A stretch of DNA of 14,341 nt from a virus (IMGVR_UViG_2703718829_000006:1-14341), one strand, 5' to 3'. Shown: positions 1 to 11,830, numbered from the stretch's first letter. Made by a program: numbers and translations. Notes: a model not told the origin generated them from the letters alone.

Positions 1-1170
1 GTGGCCCTCAGTGATACCAAACTTCGTAGCATCAATGGTAAGCCCTACAGCGGCGCACCCGAAGTCACAGATGGTGACGGTTTGAGTGTGCGTATTACTC
101 CGACTGGAACGATTACATTTCAGCATCGATATCGCTGGAACGGTAAGCCTGTTCGCCTCTCTGTCGGCCGGTATCCTGCAATGTCCCTCAAAGAGGCCCG
201 CGTTATCGTCGGTGAGATGCGCGAATTGTACCTCAAGGGGCTAAACCCTAAAAATTATTTTGCCAAAGAAGATGGCGAGCTAACGCTCAAAGAGTGCCTG
301 GATCAGTGGTGGACTAAGTATGTTGAAACGCTGAAGCCTAATACCCAGACGCTGTATAAGTCGGTTGTGTACAACACCATGTACACAGAGTTCCCGGACG
401 CACCGGTCGTAAACATCCCCGTTTCGGCTTGGGTAAGGTTCTTCGACAAGCAGGAGAAGAAAAACGGGAAAAAGGCTCGGGTGCTGCTGCTCCAACTCCG
501 ATCCGTAATGAACTGGTGTATCAGCCGTCAGCTGATCCCTTCGTGCGAGGTGCTGAAACTCAGCGTTAAGACCATCGGCAAGAAACCAGACGTTGGTAGC
601 CGGGTACTCACTTATACCGAGCTGGCAAAAATCTGGTTAGCGCTGGAAAACAATAAGGTCGTTAGCTCCAATAAGGTTCTTCACCAGTTGCTGTTGCTCT
701 GGGGTGCGCGATTATCCGAACTGCGCCTGGCCACCGCAAGTGAGTTCAATATGGGCGATCTGATTTGGACGACGCCAGCCGAGCATTCCAAAATGGGAAA
801 TGTTATTCGTCGGCCTATATTCGACCAGGTTAAACCTTACATTGAAAGGCTTCTCAATGCTGGGAACGATATTCTTTTCCCGGGTCAGGAACTGGACAAG
901 GCTATAGATCGCTCCTCAGCCAATCTCTACATGAAAAAGTTAAGGGATAAAATTGATATACCGGAATGGCGAACCCACGACTTCAGGCGTTCTCTGGTAA
1001 CGAATTTGTCAGGGGAGGGGGTTATGCCCCATGTCACTGAAAAGATGCTGGGGCATGAACTTGGTGGTGTGATGGCGGTGTATAACAAACACGACTGGCT
1101 GGTGGAGCAGAAAGACGCTTATGAGCTTTATGCCGATAAAGTGTTCTGGCACGTCAAACAGCTCGGTTAA
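1..1170 (+). CDS. Tyrosine recombinase / phage integrase, P4-like family. It starts with GTG at the first base of the window, so the true 5' end and any upstream att/tRNA cannot be seen.
   Basis: 389-aa ORF. The N-terminus (MALSDTKLR...GDGLSVRITPTGTITFQHRYRWNGKPVRLSVGRYPAMSLKEAR) is typical of the arm-binding domain of P4-type integrases. The C-terminus has the catalytic-core pattern HDFRRS...GHELGG...AVYNKHDW with a terminal tyrosine. Confidence 0.9.
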   Translation: MALSDTKLRSINGKPYSGAPEVTDGDGLSVRITPTGTITFQHRYRWNGKPVRLSVGRYPAMSLKEARVIVGEMRELYLKGLNPKNYFAKEDGELTLKECLDQWWTKYVETLKPNTQTLYKSVVYNTMYTEFPDAPVVNIPVSAWVRFFDKQEKKNGKKARVLLLQLRSVMNWCISRQLIPSCEVLKLSVKTIGKKPDVGSRVLTYTELAKIWLALENNKVVSSNKVLHQLLLLWGARLSELRLATASEFNMGDLIWTTPAEHSKMGNVIRRPIFDQVKPYIERLLNAGNDILFPGQELDKAIDRSSANLYMKKLRDKIDIPEWRTHDFRRSLVTNLSGEGVMPHVTEKMLGHELGGVMAVYNKHDWLVEQKDAYELYADKVFWHVKQLG

Positions 1171-1339
1171 CGCCTCCTTCGGCTATCCATTTCATAACGG
1201 CTTTTCTGCTATACCGCGTCGGGTACGTTAAAACTGGCTGAGGGAATCCGTGGTCTTTGCGTAAGCGCCATACTGCTGTTTTTTTCTTTTTGAGCAGGTC
1301 GAAAACTTCCTGTTCTTCCATAAAATCAGTAGTAGTCAT
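1154..1339 (-). CDS. Excisionase / AlpA-family small DNA-binding protein (Xis-like).
   Basis: 61 aa counted from the internal ATG at 1339, which has a GAGGA Shine-Dalgarno about 6 nt upstream on the minus strand. The pattern DF..E.....K.TAVWRLRKDHGFPQPV....RYSRKAVMKWI fits AlpA/Xis-type winged helix regulators. The 3' end overlaps the integrase 3' end by 17 bp in convergent orientation. Confidence 0.7.
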   Translation of the reverse strand: MTTTDFMEEQEVFDLLKKKKTAVWRLRKDHGFPQPVLTYPTRYSRKAVMKWIAEGGVNRAV

Positions 1340-1392
1340 GATTTTCCTCGTTGTTAAAGTCTTTATTGTCCGCAACTCTATTCTATGGTGAT

Positions 1393-1632
1393 TCACGCCG
1401 CCCGCATCGAGCGCAGCTTCTTAATGTGCTCGCTCTGTTCCAGTTCAGCCCGGATCTGCCGGGCCTCATCATGGTCGAGCGGTTCAAAGTCGTTGTTAAA
1501 CCTGTACATGCTGGCCGTATTTATCCGTCCTTGGCGCCAGTAGCACACCGTTCTGGCGTCACAGCTGTGAATAATGACTGGCCATCCGTGACCGTCTGGG
1601 AAAATCTGGCCTCGCTGAATGAGTTGAAACAC
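1393..1632 (-). CDS. Hypothetical small early-left protein (79 aa).
   Basis: ORF sits in the minus-strand operon between the TraR-like gene and xis. No family recognised. Confidence 0.45.
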   Translation of the reverse strand: MFQLIQRGQIFPDGHGWPVIIHSCDARTVCYWRQGRINTASMYRFNNDFEPLDHDEARQIRAELEQSEHIKKLRSMRAA

Positions 1633-1635
1633 GGC

Positions 1636-1854
1636 TCACCTCTGATGCTTCCCGCGCTTTTCCGCTTCGTCCTGGCAGTCAGCGCAGCGCTGACAACCTG
1701 CCACCAGTTCCCGGCGCCGTGCCGGAATTGCCTCTCCACAATCAATGCAGTGCGTAGCCGATACCGCGTTATGGTTGATGCGATGGGCCTGTATCGCCTT
1801 ATCGCGGAGAAGCTCTTCTAATTCGCTGGCCTGATCGATAATTTCTGCGCTCAT
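1636..1854 (-). CDS. TraR/DksA-family C4 zinc-finger protein.
   Basis: 72 aa with a Cys-X2-Cys ... Cys-X2-Cys arrangement (CIDCGEAIPARRR...GCQRCADCQ), typical of phage TraR/DksA-like proteins. The stop overlaps the start of the upstream methyltransferase gene. Confidence 0.8.
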   Translation of the reverse strand: MSAEIIDQASELEELLRDKAIQAHRINHNAVSATHCIDCGEAIPARRRELVAGCQRCADCQDEAEKRGKHQR

Positions 1855-2378
1855 GCTGCCTCCATGGTTCCGATCCGCTTTAACTCACTCAGCGAAACGG
1901 ACGTGATGATGCGTCTTGGCGTGATGAATGGCCGCCAGATGAACAAAATTGAGTCCTTTGGGTTGCTCTGCCGTTTACCTGTAGCCGACGCCGGCACAAA
2001 CTGAATGCGTCCGCCGGTTATCAGGCGAATCTCATCAGCGCTCTGCATCGCGGAGAGAAACCATCCGGTAGAGATATCTGCGGGAAGCAGAATGACTACC
2101 GTCTGGGACTGCGCTTTACATTGCTCGGTGGCTTTCTCCACCCACGGCCCGATATCGGAATAGGGTGGGTTGCACCAGATCGCGCCGTACGACGACCATT
2201 CACGACTCAGCGAGTTATCCAGCTCAGTGAGATAGTGAGCGCATAGCGCATTACGTTCAGAGGCAGCAGCATCCAGCCAGAAGCCAAACTCAAGATCGAG
2301 CGCGTTAAATATTTCAATCGGCGTTTGCCAGTAGTCTCTTTCATTTTTCGGTGTGTTCGATCCGCCGTAGTCAGTCAC
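1851..2378 (-). CDS. Phage DNA N6-adenine methyltransferase (Dam-like orphan MTase).
   Basis: 175 aa with WQTP...FGF.LDAAAS and the catalytic NPPY motif (WCNPPYSDIGPWV), the hallmark of phage Dam-family N6-adenine methyltransferases. 4-bp ATGA overlaps with both neighbours indicate operon coupling. Confidence 0.85.
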   Translation of the reverse strand: MTDYGGSNTPKNERDYWQTPIEIFNALDLEFGFWLDAAASERNALCAHYLTELDNSLSREWSSYGAIWCNPPYSDIGPWVEKATEQCKAQSQTVVILLPADISTGWFLSAMQSADEIRLITGGRIQFVPASATGKRQSNPKDSILFIWRPFITPRRIITSVSLSELKRIGTMEAA

Positions 2379-2809
2379 AATGCCGTCTCCATTTCGTCGA
2401 TATAAAGGCCAGCAGCAATCAGCCGGCGGCGCCGGGCTGCTTTCTCAATACATTCCCGGCGATTACCCTCTGCCGCCAGAGCCATAGAACGCCGAGTGAA
2501 CAGGCGTGTTTTACCCTGAGGGGTAATAACCTTTGGCTTTGTGATCAGGTCAAAGGTGCGGTCACAGATGCCGTCCTCGTTGAGCCAGGTTTCCGATGTA
2601 ACCAGCTGTGCAATGCGCCCTTCGCCTCTGGTCAGGCCGTTCGCGACACGGTTAAATTCGATGAGCGTTACGCCGAATTTCTCTGCGATTTCGCTGCCAG
2701 TTACCGGGCGACCGCGCGTCTGAATCATCCAGATAACGCGCTCGCGGAGTCCGGAGAATTTCCCGGCCTTACCTGGTCTGCGGTAAAATGGTGTGCGTTT
2801 CATTTCCAC
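2375..2809 (-). CDS. Hypothetical protein, possibly DNA-binding.
   Basis: 144 aa, basic, with a helix-turn-helix-like stretch (VTGSEIAEKFGVTLIEFNRVANGL). Translationally coupled to the downstream Dam gene. No family recognised. Confidence 0.55.
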   Translation of the reverse strand: MEMKRTPFYRRPGKAGKFSGLRERVIWMIQTRGRPVTGSEIAEKFGVTLIEFNRVANGLTRGEGRIAQLVTSETWLNEDGICDRTFDLITKPKVITPQGKTRLFTRRSMALAAEGNRRECIEKAARRRRLIAAGLYIDEMETAL

Positions 2810-2829
2810 TGCTCCCAGAGTATTTCGGC

Positions 2830-3312
2830 CTATTTGATCATCAGAGACGGCTTGCCGAGCTTTATTTGCGCCCCGGGCACGTCAATACCAGCTTCGATTT
2901 GATGCTTGATAGCCAGTTTGTCTGGTTTGATATTCGTCTCGTACTCGATGAATTCAGGCGGTAATGCGCTGGCGTCAGTAATCTCGACAGATTTAGAAGG
3001 TGCGCGAACCGTTACCTGATGAACTCCGGCTTTAAGTGATTTTTTACCGATGGTTTCCAATGATTTAGCGACATACTCCTTCATGCTTGCCACGCGGTTT
3101 TCGGCGGCTTTTGCACGCTCAATAAGGCGCTTACTTTCTTCTTTCAGAGCCTCGGCATAAGCAGATTCGTTTTTGCAGACCGCAAGAATCTGCTCAACCT
3201 TTGCTTCCAGCTCCCACTCAATTCCATCAAGAGTGTCGGCTATCATTTCAGGCTCCATGCCGGAGTCAGTCAGCCTGGCGAAATCGTTGGCGATCTGATA
3301 AAGGGCTGTCAT
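2830..3312 (-). CDS. Siphovirus Gp157-family protein, commonly found next to RecT/Erf recombinases.
   Basis: 160 aa, acidic and coiled-coil-rich, with an N-terminus ([11 protein letters not shown]...) resembling Gp157-family proteins. Sits immediately downstream of recT with a 4-bp overlap. Confidence 0.65.
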   Translation of the reverse strand: MTALYQIANDFARLTDSGMEPEMIADTLDGIEWELEAKVEQILAVCKNESAYAEALKEESKRLIERAKAAENRVASMKEYVAKSLETIGKKSLKAGVHQVTVRAPSKSVEITDASALPPEFIEYETNIKPDKLAIKHQIEAGIDVPGAQIKLGKPSLMIK

Positions 3313-4223
3313 TGGGTAACCTCTTCAAATTTGGCTTTACACTTGGCGTAAACGGCCTGAACCTCTTGCTGTAGGCGCATTCCTGCGGTCATTTTGTAGG
3401 CCGTCTGGAAATGGGTTTTGAGGTCATTCATGTTTTCTGCCTGCTTCATGTCTTCGCAAAGCGAGCGGACGGTGTTAATCAGCTCTTGCTCAGCGTTTTC
3501 TTTCGACTGGATAACTTCACTTTCAGGCGTGTAAGACATAACCGGTTCGGTAAAAATGCCTTCGCTCTCGTTAAGCATGTCCACGGCATTATCGAGACGG
3601 TCAGCGCGCGGCCAGTATTTATAGGCGCGCTTCACGATCGTCTTTCGGGCCATCTCAGACCAGAAGTTGACCCAGGGGCCTTTCGGGGATGTACCGGCTT
3701 TACTCACCTTCCTGATTTCTTCAATTTCGGCGATGCTCATCTCTTCAGTCAGGTAGTCGCCGTCTGATGTTTTAACTGTGCAGTAGCCTCCGATAACGGC
3801 GCCACGCTCTTCAGGTGTGGCGAATGGGTTGTATTTGTGGGCCGGTGCTTTATCGAGGCCAATAGTTTCGTAAGCGTCGTTCGCATGAACCAGCTTGCAT
3901 TGGCCCCACTTAATGACGCCGGCTGATTGGGCTATATGCAAAAGCCCCATATAGCTGATATCAAGGCATACCATGCCGTCACGCGGTACTAAGTAGGCCA
4001 GCTTGCTGGCAGGGTTTAAGCTGATCCCAACCGCTGCCACGTTAATGATTGCGTTCTGAGCGCTGACAGGATTGCTAACTGCCGTTTTGGCTAACGTGTC
4101 ATTGCGCTGAAATAGCTGAATCGCAAACTGGCACTCTTTTGCCCATGTCAGGCTCTGGTCAGTAAGAGCGCTGGTAAACAGCGGCTCTTGCTGTTTAACG
4201 AACTGAATAAGATCGAAGCTCAT
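3309..4223 (-). CDS. recT: RecT-family single-strand annealing recombinase.
   Basis: 304 aa. The block [24 protein letters not shown]...AVDMLNESE closely parallels the conserved RecT block of Rac RecT (GPWVTHWEEMAKKTAIRRLFKYLP...AVSMDEKE). Confidence 0.9.
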
Positions 4224-4516
4224 AGCCCCTCCTCAATGTTGACTTGATGCCGGGCAATGACTTCCACCATGTAGCGCACGTTTTCCGCCATGCGCTCCTG
4301 AAACTCAACATCGTCATCAAACGCACGGGTAATGGCTTTTTTGCTGGCCCCGTGGCGTTGCAAATGATCGATGCATAGCGATTCAAACAGGTGCTGGGGC
4401 AGGCTTTTTTCCATGTCGTCTGCCAGTTCTGCCTCTTTCTCTTCACGGGCGAGCTGCTGGTAGTGACGCGCCCAGCTCTGAGCCTCAAGACGATCCTGAA
4501 TGTAATAAGCGTTCAT
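4220..4516 (-). CDS. gam: Gam, host RecBCD nuclease inhibitor (short GamS-length form).
   Basis: The 98-aa product ([37 protein letters not shown]...) is nearly identical, as recalled, to the C-terminal short form of lambda Gam. 4-bp overlap with recT. Confidence 0.9.
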
Positions 4517-4592
4517 GGCTGAACTCCTGAAAATGGCTGTGAAAATATCGCCCGCGAAATGCCAGGCTGATTAGGAAAACAGGAAAGGGGGG

Positions 4593-4799
4593 TTAGTGAT
4601 TCAGGCCGTTACCGCGTCCGTCGAGAAAAACTTCCACGAGCAAATCACGGGTATAAGTGCGCTCGATGCCGCGATGCAGATAAAGCCGTCCGCGTAAATT
4701 AGCTGATGCAGTCCAGGTACCATCTTTGTGTTTGACCAGCATTCCTGGCATGACCGCGCCGCGATTAACGGTCTGTGTTCCGTAATGTTGATGAACCAT
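4593..4799 (-). CDS. Hypothetical small protein in the kil/cIII position upstream of gam. The start is uncertain: the ORF is open up to a TTG at 5003.
   Basis: The ATG at 4799 is preceded on the minus strand by AGGAG with a 5-nt spacer, giving a 68-aa product (MVHQHYGTQTVNRGAV...). The longer 136-aa frame starts at TTG with no Shine-Dalgarno and has an arginine-rich N-terminus. No family recognised. Confidence 0.4.
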   Translation of the reverse strand: MVHQHYGTQTVNRGAVMPGMLVKHKDGTWTASANLRGRLYLHRGIERTYTRDLLVEVFLDGRGNGLNH

Positions 4800-5052
4800 A
4801 AAAACTCCTGCCCGTAAGCTGGGCTGCTGAACATATAGAGACTTCTGCGCGTATTCAGGCGGTGGATGGCCGCCGGTTGTCATAACTAAGCCGCCTCGTT
4901 GAAGCGACTGAGGTATGAAATGTTGAGTTAATTTCAGCTGGTCACACCGACGTTCACGCGTCCGTTTCACCCCTCGCACTCCCCGAAGCCTGCCGAAATT
5001 CAAACTGCGGATCTAAGCGGTCATCGCAACGGTGAATCAGGTAGTTGCCGTA

Positions 5053-5135
5053 TCGTTGTGTTGTTGCGACGAACTTATTTAAAACTATAGTTGTTTTATC
5101 GTCAACAACAAAAGTTGTTTTATTGGTTGTTTTAG
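5053..5135. promoter_or_regulatory. Putative OL operator / pL region: a cluster of GTTGTT-containing repeats.
   Basis: Direct copies of RGTTGTTTTA at 5089-5098, 5113-5122 and 5125-5134, another GTTGTT at 5060-5065, and an inverted AACAAC at 5104-5109. The same motif recurs in the cI-cro intergenic region. Confidence 0.45.
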
Positions 5136-5245
5136 ATATAACTGATTGTATTTAGGATGGATTTATTTTGTGACTTGAATCGCATAGCGATAACTGAAGC
5201 GAGGTTATGGTGGTTTTTTTAACGGTGTGTGTGATGAGGGGAGGG

Positions 5246-5273
5246 CAAAAGAAAACCCGGCACGGTGACCGGG
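5246..5273 (-). terminator. Putative intrinsic terminator downstream of cI.
   Basis: Plus-strand sequence CCCGG-cacggtga-CCGGG is preceded by caaaagaaaa. On the minus strand this reads as a hairpin followed by a T-rich tract, about 120 nt past the cI stop. Confidence 0.45.
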
Positions 5274-5394
5274 ATTCTTACGCCGTTAGGTAAAGATATT
5301 ATTGCGGTGGCTTAATATTACTACCTAGAGCAAAGATAGGAATTAGTTCTTTACTGAATGAGCACAATGCCCAGTTGATAATTTTTAATTGGTA

Positions 5395-6084
5395 CTACCC
5401 ATGCTTCCTATATGTCTGCGGCATGCTCCCAATAACCTTACCGAAGATGAACACCCGGTTCATCTCGTCTTTCTCGATCGGGTCCCACGGTGAGTAGCTT
5501 TTGTTATCAGAGATGACCAGCAGCTTATCCTTCATCATTTGCAGGCGCTTTACATGGGCTGTGTCGTCGTACAGAAACGCATAGATACCATCACCGTCGA
5601 AAGATTTAACTGTGATATCAACGAACAGCAGATCACCTGGTTCGATCGTTCCTGACATGCTGTCACCACGCACGTTAATGATGCGGATATTTTCCGCCTT
5701 CCTACCATCGAACATGTGACGAGCATCGTCAAACGAGTACTCAACCGAGCGTAGAACTTCTACAAACTCACGGTTGATGACTCCCGGCCCAGCACTGACT
5801 TCTATATCAAGAACGTCAATCTTGAAGTATTTGGAATGGCTGACAGTTGATTGTATTGGTTGCACTGTACTGTCTGACATATTTCCAACGCCAGAAGATA
5901 ACCATTCTGCGCGCACACCCAAAGCGTTCGCGATCTCCACGATTTTAGTTGTTTGATTAGCTTTCCCTGTTTCGATTTTCTGAATAGCAGCCTGGCTAAC
6001 CCCGACCAAATCCCCAAGCGCCTTTTGTGTAAGGCCTCGCGCTAATCTGGCTTCTTTAAGTCTTTCTGAGAGTGTTGTTTTCAT
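5395..6084 (-). CDS. cI: CI-like prophage repressor (N-terminal HTH plus C-terminal S24 LexA-like autopeptidase domain).
   Basis: HTH region LSERLKEARLARGLTQKALGDLVGVSQAAIQKIETGK. The C-terminal domain has GDSM (catalytic Ser) and a VKRL lysine typical of S24 self-cleaving repressors. Start placed at the ATG at 6084; the ORF is open up to 6150, but that upstream ATG lies inside the operator palindrome. Confidence 0.88.
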   Translation of the reverse strand: MKTTLSERLKEARLARGLTQKALGDLVGVSQAAIQKIETGKANQTTKIVEIANALGVRAEWLSSGVGNMSDSTVQPIQSTVSHSKYFKIDVLDIEVSAGPGVINREFVEVLRSVEYSFDDARHMFDGRKAENIRIINVRGDSMSGTIEPGDLLFVDITVKSFDGDGIYAFLYDDTAHVKRLQMMKDKLLVISDNKSYSPWDPIEKDEMNRVFIFGKVIGSMPQTYRKHG

Positions 6085-6161
6085 AGTCCAAATGTACAAC
6101 CAAGGTTTTATTCTATCAAACGAAAATGGTTGTTGACTAAAAACAACCATAGTTTTAATCT
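6072..6161. promoter_or_regulatory. Putative OR operators and pR promoter between cI and cro.
   Basis: 25-bp dyad ATGGTTGTT-gactaaa-AACAACCAT at 6126-6150. A further GTTGTTTT at 6074-6081 abuts the cI start codon. A -35-like TTGACT at 6133-6138 and a -10-like TAATCT at 6156-6161 lie upstream of the cro Shine-Dalgarno GGAGG. Confidence 0.5.
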
Positions 6162-9038: not shown

Positions 9039-9130
9039 GGTTGACGATAACTCGTGTCTGGAGTTATATTTTGCCCGTTGCCGCAAAATCGGCACACGGG
9101 ATTGGCGTCCCGGAATACTACTCAACGCAT

Positions 9131-9151
9131 ACCGCGTTAAGCGGTTTTTTT
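9131..9151 (+). terminator. Intrinsic terminator after ren (tR2-like position).
   Basis: ACCGC-gttaa-GCGGT hairpin followed by TTTTTTT. Confidence 0.6.
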
Positions 9152-9250
9152 ATGCGCTAAGCACGGCTACGCCCAAATTATGGTGGGCTGTGTGAGGGCT
9201 TCTTCGGGAGCGCCGGGTTTGAGTAGCCGGTTACGCCAACCTTGCACAGT

Positions 9251-9283
9251 TCACCACCAGTCGATTGGCGTCGTTGGTGGTGA
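9251..9283. promoter_or_regulatory. Perfect 9-bp inverted repeat with a 15-bp spacer, just upstream of the Bro-N gene.
   Basis: TCACCACCA (9251-9259) and TGGTGGTGA (9275-9283), about 25 bp upstream of the ATG at 9308. Could be an operator or a 5'UTR hairpin. Confidence 0.4.
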
Positions 9284-9307: not shown

Positions 9308-9916
9308 ATGACTACTCAATTAGCATTCCACAAAACGACTTTTACCCCAATTTGCCACAATAACAGAATTTGGCTTACTGCCACTGAAGTTGGTTTAGCT
9401 CTGGAATATGCGGACGATAAAGCAGTTCAGCGCATTTACTCTCGTCACTCAGATGAATTTACAGATATGATGACAAGGGTGGTCAAAGTGACCACCCCTC
9501 GTGGAATGCAGGAGTCTCGAGTATTTAGCCTTCGCGGAGCCCATTTGATCGCCATGTTTGCACGAACTCCTGTAGCCAAAGAGTTCCGTCGCTGGGTTCT
9601 GGATATTCTCGATCGAGAAGTTCAACAATCCCCAATCATAAAACAATTCACTGATAACGAACTTTGCACACTTGCTTGGTTGTGGCGAGCTGGGGATGCG
9701 ATGTTAACCGCCTGCCAGAACGTTACTCCTCTTCTTCAGGTTGCGGAGCATCGTGAAGCTGGTCGCTTCACTTCTATCGAGCAAGAATATCCCCAGATAC
9801 TCAATAAGGCACAGGCAATCCTTGCCAGAGAAACGGCACATGTAAAATTCCGGCCGTGGCAGGATGATAAGTGGAGTCGAGTTTTGCCGCATTTACGTTC
9901 GGATCGATTACAGTAG
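9308..9916 (+). CDS. Bro-N domain protein (antirepressor/Roi-like family).
   Basis: 202 aa with a GAGGTG Shine-Dalgarno. The N-terminal half fits the Bro-N fold pattern (F....NNRIWLTATEVGLALEY.D......R.......T.GG.Q....I.E.G.Y.LI..S....A..F..WV...). The C-terminal half is unassigned. Confidence 0.8.
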   Translation: MTTQLAFHKTTFTPICHNNRIWLTATEVGLALEYADDKAVQRIYSRHSDEFTDMMTRVVKVTTPRGMQESRVFSLRGAHLIAMFARTPVAKEFRRWVLDILDREVQQSPIIKQFTDNELCTLAWLWRAGDAMLTACQNVTPLLQVAEHREAGRFTSIEQEYPQILNKAQAILARETAHVKFRPWQDDKWSRVLPHLRSDRLQ

Positions 9917-11377: not shown

Positions 11378-11547
11378 TGACTACACCGCTTATTCGGGTC
11401 ATGAACGGACACATCTACAGAGTACCAAATCGTCGTAAGCGTAAGCCTGAGCTGAAGCCATCCGAAATACCAACACTGCTAGGGTATACCGCCAGCCTGG
11501 TTGATAAAAAATGGTTGCGACTGGCAGCAAGGAGGAATCATGGCTGA
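11377..11547 (+). CDS. ninE: NinE (small nin-region protein, 56 aa). Not in the supplied ORF track because it is short.
   Basis: The ATG overlaps the ybcN stop (TAATG). Translation [56 protein letters not shown] matches NinE as recalled. The 3' end overlaps the ybcO start. Confidence 0.75.
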   Translation: MTTPLIRVMNGHIYRVPNRRKRKPELKPSEIPTLLGYTASLVDKKWLRLAARRNHG

Positions 11548-11830
11548 TTTGAGAAAAGCAGCGCGTGGTCGGGAATGCCAGGTAAGAATCCCTGGCGTAT
11601 GTAATGGCAATTCTGAGACGTCTGTACTGGCACATATCCGGCTGGCTGGATTGTGCGGTACCGGTATCAAACCGCCAGACCTGATTGCCACCATTGCATG
11701 TTCTGCCTGTCACGACGAAATCGACCGCCGCACACATTTTGTCGATGCTGAGTATGCAAAAGAATGCGCGCTGGAAGGTATGGCGAGAACACAGGTTATC
11801 TGGCTGAAAGAGGGGGTTATTAAGGCGTGA
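11540..11830 (+). CDS. ybcO: YbcO-like protein (DLP12 YbcO family, described as a putative nuclease).
   Basis: Start at the ATG at 11540, preceded by AAGGAGGA. The 96-aa product ([33 protein letters not shown]...[11 protein letters not shown]) has conserved Cys/His and matches DLP12 YbcO as recalled. Confidence 0.85.

Follow-up and report, generated by a model that had tools for sequence, protein, structure and literature searches.

The stretch of DNA analyzed in this work (IMGVR_UViG_2703718829_000006:1-14341; 14.3 kb, 14,341 nucleotides, hereafter referred to as the window) is the portion of a lambdoid E. coli prophage that runs from int to lysis, and its early-left operon contains a recombination (Rec) module in which the genes gam, recT and gp157 follow each other and no exonuclease gene is present. 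In the lineage of this RecT protein, the last ~60 residues form an exchangeable domain, which changes in every case with the next gene. The first-pass annotation of the window had taken RecT to be without a partner, but Gp157 occupies the slot of the exonuclease (Exo) and the C-terminal domain of RecT changes along with it, so that RecT is better termed re-partnered than partnerless. As a whole, the locus appears to be best explained as an intact nuclease-free lambdoid Rec module, transcribed leftward after kil, with a RecT-Gp157 mechanism, a reading to which we assign a probability of about 0.6. The tail-partner swap is the new part of the analysis; the module type itself is already catalogued.

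The evidence for the swap comes from a survey of 188 related loci that were classified by RecT tail type and by the gene that follows recT. The loci belong to three collections, the sources being species genomes, a phage collection, contigs with an identical RecT and two IMG/VR scans using core-only queries, and three more loci that end at contig edges are not counted among the 188. Whereas the RecT cores of these loci are 60-100% identical, they carry several unrelated C-terminal domains. The tail type found in the window (type A) was followed by gp157 in 179 of 179 loci, a Bet-like tail was followed by a lambda-Exo/YqaJ nuclease gene in 7 of 7, and a third type of tail (...KGRTEAEFFAWFSQARRLPEPIQSFDVMTDDELRWVAKKMEASK), present in the IMG/VR contigs L150 and L162, was followed in both of them by the gene for a divergent 225-amino acid (aa) YqaJ-like exonuclease; no discordant combination of tail and next gene was observed. 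The 188 loci are not independent, and dereplication at 97% core identity leaves 34 Gp157-linked and 7 Exo-linked lineages. In a neighbor-joining tree of the RecT cores the Exo-linked lineages are both basal to and nested inside the Gp157-linked clade, and the tree requires at least three partner switches. The Exo-linked core of Rosenbergiella, for instance, is 80% identical to Gp157-linked cores versus 57-68% to the other Exo-linked cores. Among the exonucleases, the most divergent pair with the most divergent tails. The mosaic joint, used at least three times, coincides with the core/tail boundary within recT and not with the boundary between genes, and it is solely this position that argues for a functional coupling between the tail and Gp157.

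By sequence, the window RecT is a RecT-family single-strand annealing protein (SAP), scoring 103.9 bits against PF03837 (cut-off 24) and 78 bits against TIGR00616 (cut-off 52.65). Its core is 57-62% identical to that of phi80 RecT and 68% identical to that of the Stx-phage PA2, and the window and phi80 proteins share 57% identity across residues 1-250, after which they are unrelated. The proteins named RecT in phi80 (L023:6091-7008) and in Stx phages (PA2, L028; L018, L117) are chimeras of a RecT-family core and the C-terminal domain of lambda Red-beta. In phi80, PA2 and Rosenbergiella, the cores are 60-68% identical to that of the window and the tails 54-77% identical to the lambda Bet tail. 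The phi80 tail, which is 74-77% identical to the lambda Bet C-terminal domain, matches the solved Red-beta structures (8TFU at 6e-32 and 6M9K, the Exo complex, at 2e-25), and this Red-beta domain is known to dock on lambda Exo and on SSB, the protein that binds single-stranded DNA (PMC6393309). The window RecT, for its part, gave no match against the PDB. All Gp157-linked RecTs keep the motif LC(D/E)xM..LKxxFxxAYKxTxGMxLQQxVQAxY. No homology of the type-A tail to the Red-beta/phi80 tail was detectable (hhalign E 0.29), a value on which the idea that both tail types are recognizably the same three-helix bundle was dropped; our own reading of its residues would give the type-A tail a pattern of three helices.

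The first-pass annotation had also described gam, recT and gp157 as translationally coupled genes, and had found no exonuclease open reading frame (ORF) in the early-left operon. These claims were confirmed. The three genes, all on the minus strand, match both Pfam and PHROG families at the positions listed in Table 1, and both junctions are ATGA stop/start overlaps (gam/recT, GGGGCTATGAGC; recT/gp157, CCCAATGACAGCC); a simple terminator scan inside the cluster yielded nothing beyond weak, low-GC candidates. The gene that follows recT is gp157, with no adjoining 5'-3' exonuclease gene, unlike in the two-component recombinases lambda Red and RecET. The proposed profile search of the early-left ORFs for an exonuclease of the PD-(D/E)xK or YqaJ fold was run and matched none of them, and no ORF anywhere in the window matched an exonuclease family of Pfam or PHROGs (PF09588 or related nuclease profiles; E ≤ 0.1 for early-left ORFs and E ≤ 0.01 for right-arm ORFs). 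Likewise, nothing was found when the exonucleases of lambda, phi80 and PA2 were compared with the window by tblastn. This negative result has power, since searches against the same Pfam library recover the exonucleases of phi80 (1e-31) and PA2 (4e-28) as YqaJ matches. The window also contains no SSB gene.

The Gp157 protein scores 142.1 bits against PF05565 (cut-off 28.6) and covers profile positions 2-162 of 162, which places it in a Sipho_Gp157 family of 11,917 cluster representatives at E ≤ 0.001. An alignment of 80 diverse members contains no invariant Asp, Glu or His, and the best-conserved residues are K38, K132, Y80, P118, G142 and G147. The N-terminal half of the protein is acidic (isoelectric point 4.7) and the C-terminal half is basic (isoelectric point 9.1). 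Gp157 is unlikely to be a metal-dependent nuclease because of this basic C-terminal half and the lack of invariant Asp, Glu or His. An AlphaFold model (predicted local distance difference test score, 74) predicts one long helix at residues 21-87 together with a small beta domain that is poorly resolved, and fold searches with it returned nothing informative. The gp157 gene is under purifying selection: the ratio of nonsynonymous to synonymous substitution rates is ~0.10, with synonymous divergence near saturation, and 174 full-length copies align without gaps over the 160 aa.

A relationship of Gp157 to Gam of phage Mu, a Ku-like DNA-end binder of similar size, has been claimed in the literature: another Sipho_Gp157 protein matches the Gam structure 2P2U at 99.4% by HHpred (PMC10530707), and the Gp157 homologues of HK140 and HK639 were classed as "MuGam" (Zheng et al. 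2025, PMC12315714). The label of PHROG 253, to which Gp157 belongs, is "Mu Gam-like end protection". Our searches did not reach significance for this remote homology, and our own evidence is weak but colinear. Gp157 matches the Mu Gam profile PF07352 over nearly its whole length but below the family threshold (17.8 bits, cut-off 28.3; E 0.0034), sub-threshold matches to Mu Gam occur in 9 of the 80 diverse members, and hhalign gave E 0.012 with a low probability. Profile searches of PDB sequences with Gp157 alignments of 28 and 80 sequences did not reach 2P2U, their only marginal match being the helical Vibrio protein 2JZ5 (E 0.005), and a second profile search for homologues recovered the same close relatives only. 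On balance, Gp157 is probably a Mu-Gam-like end binder, its end binding being a prediction from these profile similarities.

The window Gam protein scores 200.6 bits against PF06064 (cut-off 25) and is 92% identical to residues 41-135 of lambda Gam. The frame upstream of the gam ATG (4517-4600, minus strand) is still similar to the N-terminal extension annotated for the 138-aa lambda Gam, but it contains a stop and lacks a start codon, so that the 98-aa short Gam is the only form possible. The slot upstream of recT is variable among the 179 Gp157 loci, being occupied by GamL in 74, by a 102-aa protein of the HK140 type in 74 and by lambda Gam in 17, with none detected in 14; Gam or GamL is thus present in 91 of the 179 modules. 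Lambda-type Gam and phi80-type GamL are distant homologues (hhalign E 9e-10). The HK140-type protein (HK140 gp42, L026:3690-3998; ~74 loci) is conserved, acidic and encoded directly upstream of recT, in the Gam slot. It has no Pfam or NCBIfam match, and its alignment to lambda Gam is weak and local (hhalign E 0.0023, 23 columns); it could be another type of RecBCD inhibitor.

The first-pass annotation had regarded a RecT module without exonuclease as an anomaly, which does not agree with published surveys or with the phages that carry the cassette. Of the 246 lambdoid Rec modules surveyed by Zheng et al. (2025), 84 were without a nuclease gene (PMC12315714), and Lopes et al. (2010) detected 133 recombinases but found a RecE-like exonuclease alongside a recombinase in only 30 phage genomes (PMC2896510). 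In Gram-negative phages, RecT goes with a RecE-like exonuclease according to PMC8093625. The SAP sequence type 4 of Zheng et al., which is the RecT type of the window, occurs with MuGam and no nuclease in HK140, with Exo and GamL in phi80 and with RecE in Edno5 (PMC12315714). The window has a contiguous annealase and anti-RecBCD pair and neither a nuclease nor an SSB gene, as in the nuclease-free lambdoid Rec module defined in that survey (the "P22" functional type). Because such layouts are already on record, the window module belongs to a known kind, and we consider it very probable that it is a known nuclease-free module type. The whole cassette is also present in HK639, Klebsiella phage KO-TP1 and an E. 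coli prophage, and RecT-Gp157 pairs are present in the isolated phages HK140, mEpX1, Kapi1, Pantoea PA-1, 15G and Aeromonas phiA005. HK639, HK140, mEpX1, Kapi1, Pantoea PA-1, Klebsiella KO-TP1 and Aeromonas phiA005 are cassette-bearing, plaque-forming phages.

HK639 shares with the window the gene order, including the 142-aa regulator, a RecT 90% and a Gp157 92.5% identical, the lack of a nuclease and the presence of two putative anti-RecBCD proteins, but its upstream inhibitor is the phi80-type GamL and not the lambda-type Gam. Zheng et al. note it among three phages that carry two genes for one function, in its case GamL and MuGam (PMC12315714). In HK140, mEpX1, Kapi1 and Pantoea PA-1 the type-A-tailed RecT is likewise followed directly by Gp157, with no nuclease, although these phages have the acidic 102-aa protein instead of Gam or GamL and their Gp157 proteins are 61-79% identical to that of the window. 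The GamL-RecT-Exo modules of phi80 and PA2 have the same RecT core lineage (57-68% identical) at the same operon position, but with a Red-beta-type Exo-binding tail followed by a YqaJ/lambda-Exo nuclease. The layout of phi80 is gamL-recT (305 aa)-exo (226 aa)-142-aa gene, whereas that of the window is gam-recT (304 aa)-gp157 (160 aa)-142-aa gene. Lambda Red (Gam-Bet-Exo) follows the same operon logic, with the same Gam, an overlap of a few bases between the annealase and the next gene, and a C-terminal partner domain on the annealase, but the Bet core is of another sequence type and lambda encodes its own 5'-3' exonuclease. P22-type modules (Abc2 and Erf; 46 phages in PMC12315714) also combine an anti-RecBCD protein and an annealase without a phage nuclease, but Abc2 redirects RecBCD to supply resection, and the resection source must differ in the window because its Gam is expected to block RecBCD completely. 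The erf and sak4 genes of Firmicutes phages regularly have Mu gam-like and orf157-like genes as neighbors (PMC8093625); these modules have a Gp157/Mu-Gam-like gene adjoining the annealase and no exonuclease, but the Gp157-like gene lies upstream of an annealase of another family and an SSB gene is usually present.

The mechanism that we propose for the window module is that Gam would shut off RecBCD, making rolling-circle replication possible, while Gp157 would form a Mu-Gam/Ku-like dimer, basic in its C-terminal half, that binds double-strand ends. The type-A tail of RecT would then dock on Gp157 and bring RecT to the ends, by analogy with the Red-beta tail on Exo, and the single-stranded DNA annealed by RecT would come from host 5'-3' resection (e.g., by RecJ and RecQ) or from replication forks, with no phage nuclease involved. 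That Gp157 is the physical partner of RecT through the type-A C-terminal domain is a tentative proposal built on that analogy, with somewhat less than an even chance of being correct. The more complete version, in which Gp157 would be a cognate non-enzymatic end-binding platform that recruits RecT, resection would be outsourced to the host, and the tail together with the partner gene would be the real unit of exchange, is possible but should be held more tentatively. Several observations weigh against this mechanism. Perfect covariation is expected from linkage alone because the tail and gp157 adjoin and lie less than 200 bp apart. Within the Gp157-type loci, the divergences of tail and Gp157 correlate only moderately in a mirror-tree test (Spearman 0.44; 0.39 controlling for the core), as linkage would give, and this correlation was discounted as interaction evidence, being inseparable from linkage. 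The neighbor-joining tree carries no support values, and true Mu Gam blocks resection, which fits awkwardly with promoting annealing at ends.

In line with these points, Gp157 could instead be an independent second anti-nuclease acting in end protection, the type-A tail binding host SSB or another target and the covariation being due to linkage, an alternative that we take seriously but find doubtful. It would agree with the classification of the homologues as MuGam-type anti-RecBCD proteins by Zheng et al. (PMC12315714), with the binding of SSB, too, by the Red-beta tail and with the merely loose correlation between Gp157 and tail identities. Moreover, Gp157/Mu-Gam-like genes adjoin the unrelated annealases Erf and Sak4 in Firmicutes phages, and one E. 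coli phage has such a gene with Sak4, so the partnership of Gp157 is not RecT-specific. However, a second RecBCD blocker would often be redundant in modules of which 91 of 179 already carry Gam or GamL and 74 more have the 102-aa protein in the Gam slot, and the joint, which in at least three separate switches falls at the domain boundary of recT and not between the genes, also speaks against this reading. Because about half of the modules carry Gam or GamL and the joint falls repeatedly at the core/tail boundary, Gp157 would appear to do more than block RecBCD.

Two further explanations were considered. A cryptic divergent exonuclease might be encoded nearby, by the 142-aa gene, the DUF4222 gene, ybcO or a gene beyond the window, since the search covers the int-to-lysis part and the late region of the prophage lies further on. 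The first-pass annotation had singled out the unassigned proteins at 2375-2809 and 1393-1632 as candidates, and neither proved to be a nuclease. The 142-aa protein (2375-2803) models as a winged helix-turn-helix fold, and it is no substitute for Exo because phi80 has the same gene, 83% identical, 3' of its true exo. The DUF4222 protein (79 aa; no significant PDB match) falls short of the size that any known exonuclease fold needs. YbcO (11501-11830) is called a putative nuclease in Pfam and an HNH endonuclease in PHROGs, but such a gene is a general feature of the nin region in lambdoid phages, and an HNH-type endonuclease is the most that YbcO would be. NCBIfam added nothing for Gp157 or for these three proteins. 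In HK639, no exonuclease is annotated within 24,984-49,576, a range that includes all the inspected non-structural genes, and the survey scores the module type as nuclease-free (PMC12315714). A hidden exonuclease is, in consequence, very improbable. The idea that the module is a decaying remnant which lost exo and retained gp157 as unrelated cargo appears even less credible. Prophages often decay, and there are related loci with a frameshifted recT (L020) or a nearby insertion sequence (L033), but in the window the ORFs are intact and translationally coupled, the layout is found in 179 loci and in plaque-forming phages, the selection acting on gp157 is purifying, and 276 blocks of public assemblies (draft and metagenome) encode the identical RecT protein.

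For annotation, these results mean that a RecT gene without an adjoining exonuclease gene represents a common, conserved design and not a broken or odd system. Zheng et al. suggested that shuffled partner-interaction domains underlie the promiscuity of these proteins and called that analysis "beyond the scope" of their work (PMC12315714); the covariation addresses this point and leads to the hypothesis that RecT residues ~239-304 bind Gp157. Should this binding hold, it would account for the retention of a Mu-Gam-like gene by phages in which RecBCD is already inhibited, and co-expression of the cognate Gp157 or matching of tail and partner might improve recombineering with double-stranded DNA or its portability.

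With respect to the genetic setting, the early-left operon is transcribed in the order kil, gam, recT, gp157, 142-aa gene, Dam methylase, DksA/TraR, DUF4222 and Xis-like (Table 1), and the counterpart of kil in syntenic contigs is called as a 68-aa KilR protein. The rightward arm encodes cro-like, cII-like, O, P, Ren-like, Bro/Ant antirepressor, NinB/Orf, NinE, YbcO, RusA, Q, holin and endolysin functions. In contigs with an identical RecT, the prophage lies at the tRNA-Arg gene argW, beside dsdC-dsdX-dsdA, and the host is assigned as E. coli because this flank is 99.8% identical to E. coli. A comparison of window 2375-4516 with 5,426 complete E. coli genomes found no copy of the recT-gp157 segment at >88% identity.

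Table 1. Position of the Rec module and of other features in the window
Feature	Position	Strand	Remarks
Integrase	1-1170	+	First gene of the window
Xis-like helix-turn-helix protein	1154-1396	-	Early-left operon
DUF4222 protein, 79 aa	1393-1632	-	Early-left operon
DksA/TraR zinc-finger protein	1636-1854	-	Early-left operon
Dam methylase	1851-2378	-	Early-left operon
142-aa winged-helix "regulator"	2375-2803	-	PHROG 1680; flanks the Rec module, outside it
gp157, 160 aa	2830-3312	-	Pfam Sipho_Gp157 PF05565, E 2e-41; PHROG 253, E 8.4e-49
recT, 304 aa	3309-4223	-	Pfam RecT PF03837, E 1.1e-29; PHROG 148, E 1.8e-80
recT annealing core, residues 1-225	3549-4223	-	Pfam RecT; PHROG 148
recT linker and type-A tail, residues 226-304, with the stop codon	3309-3548	-	
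gam, lambda-type RecBCD inhibitor, short 98-aa form	4220-4516	-	Pfam Gam PF06064, E 3.9e-60
kil, 68 aa	4593-4799	-	PHROG 294, E 2.2e-38; adjoins gam upstream in the early-left operon
CI repressor	5395-6150	-	Longest ORF 251 aa

Some minor observations concern the related loci. Two contigs of ~2 kb labeled Micromonospora sp. and Streptomyces sp. (L012 and L013) carry an enterobacterial-type recT-gp157 pair that is 67-70% identical to that of the window, most likely as a result of assembly contamination. The frameshifted recT is that of Escherichia sp. ESNIH1 (L020:10001-10884), and in GCA_020556165 (L033:13261-14304) the insertion sequence (DDE_Tnp_1) lies between the DksA-like gene and int, with a rearranged right arm.

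Regarding the immunity region, gene callers give a CI protein of 229 aa in the syntenic contigs, and the first 22 residues of the 251-aa ORF (MVVFSQQPFSFDRIKPWLYIWT) are probably untranslated. The interval between cI and kil (5004-5394) contains no ORF and no N-like antiterminator gene, and neither a match to a putL-like antiterminator RNA of the HK639 type nor an Rfam hit was obtained there. A terminator-like hairpin follows cI at 5256-5273, and a possible pL promoter (TTGACG-17-TTAAAT) is located at 5077-5105 on the minus strand, the AACAAC/GTTGTT inverted repeats that flank it being candidate operators. On the plus strand, two Rfam matches lie just upstream of a Bro-N/P22 AR-type antirepressor gene (9308-9916): an isrK Hfq-binding small RNA at 9079-9151 scores 60.7 bits, and a C4 antisense RNA at 9176-9261 scores 72.7 bits. 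The unit looks like the P1/P7 immI-like antisense control of ant in a lambdoid prophage.

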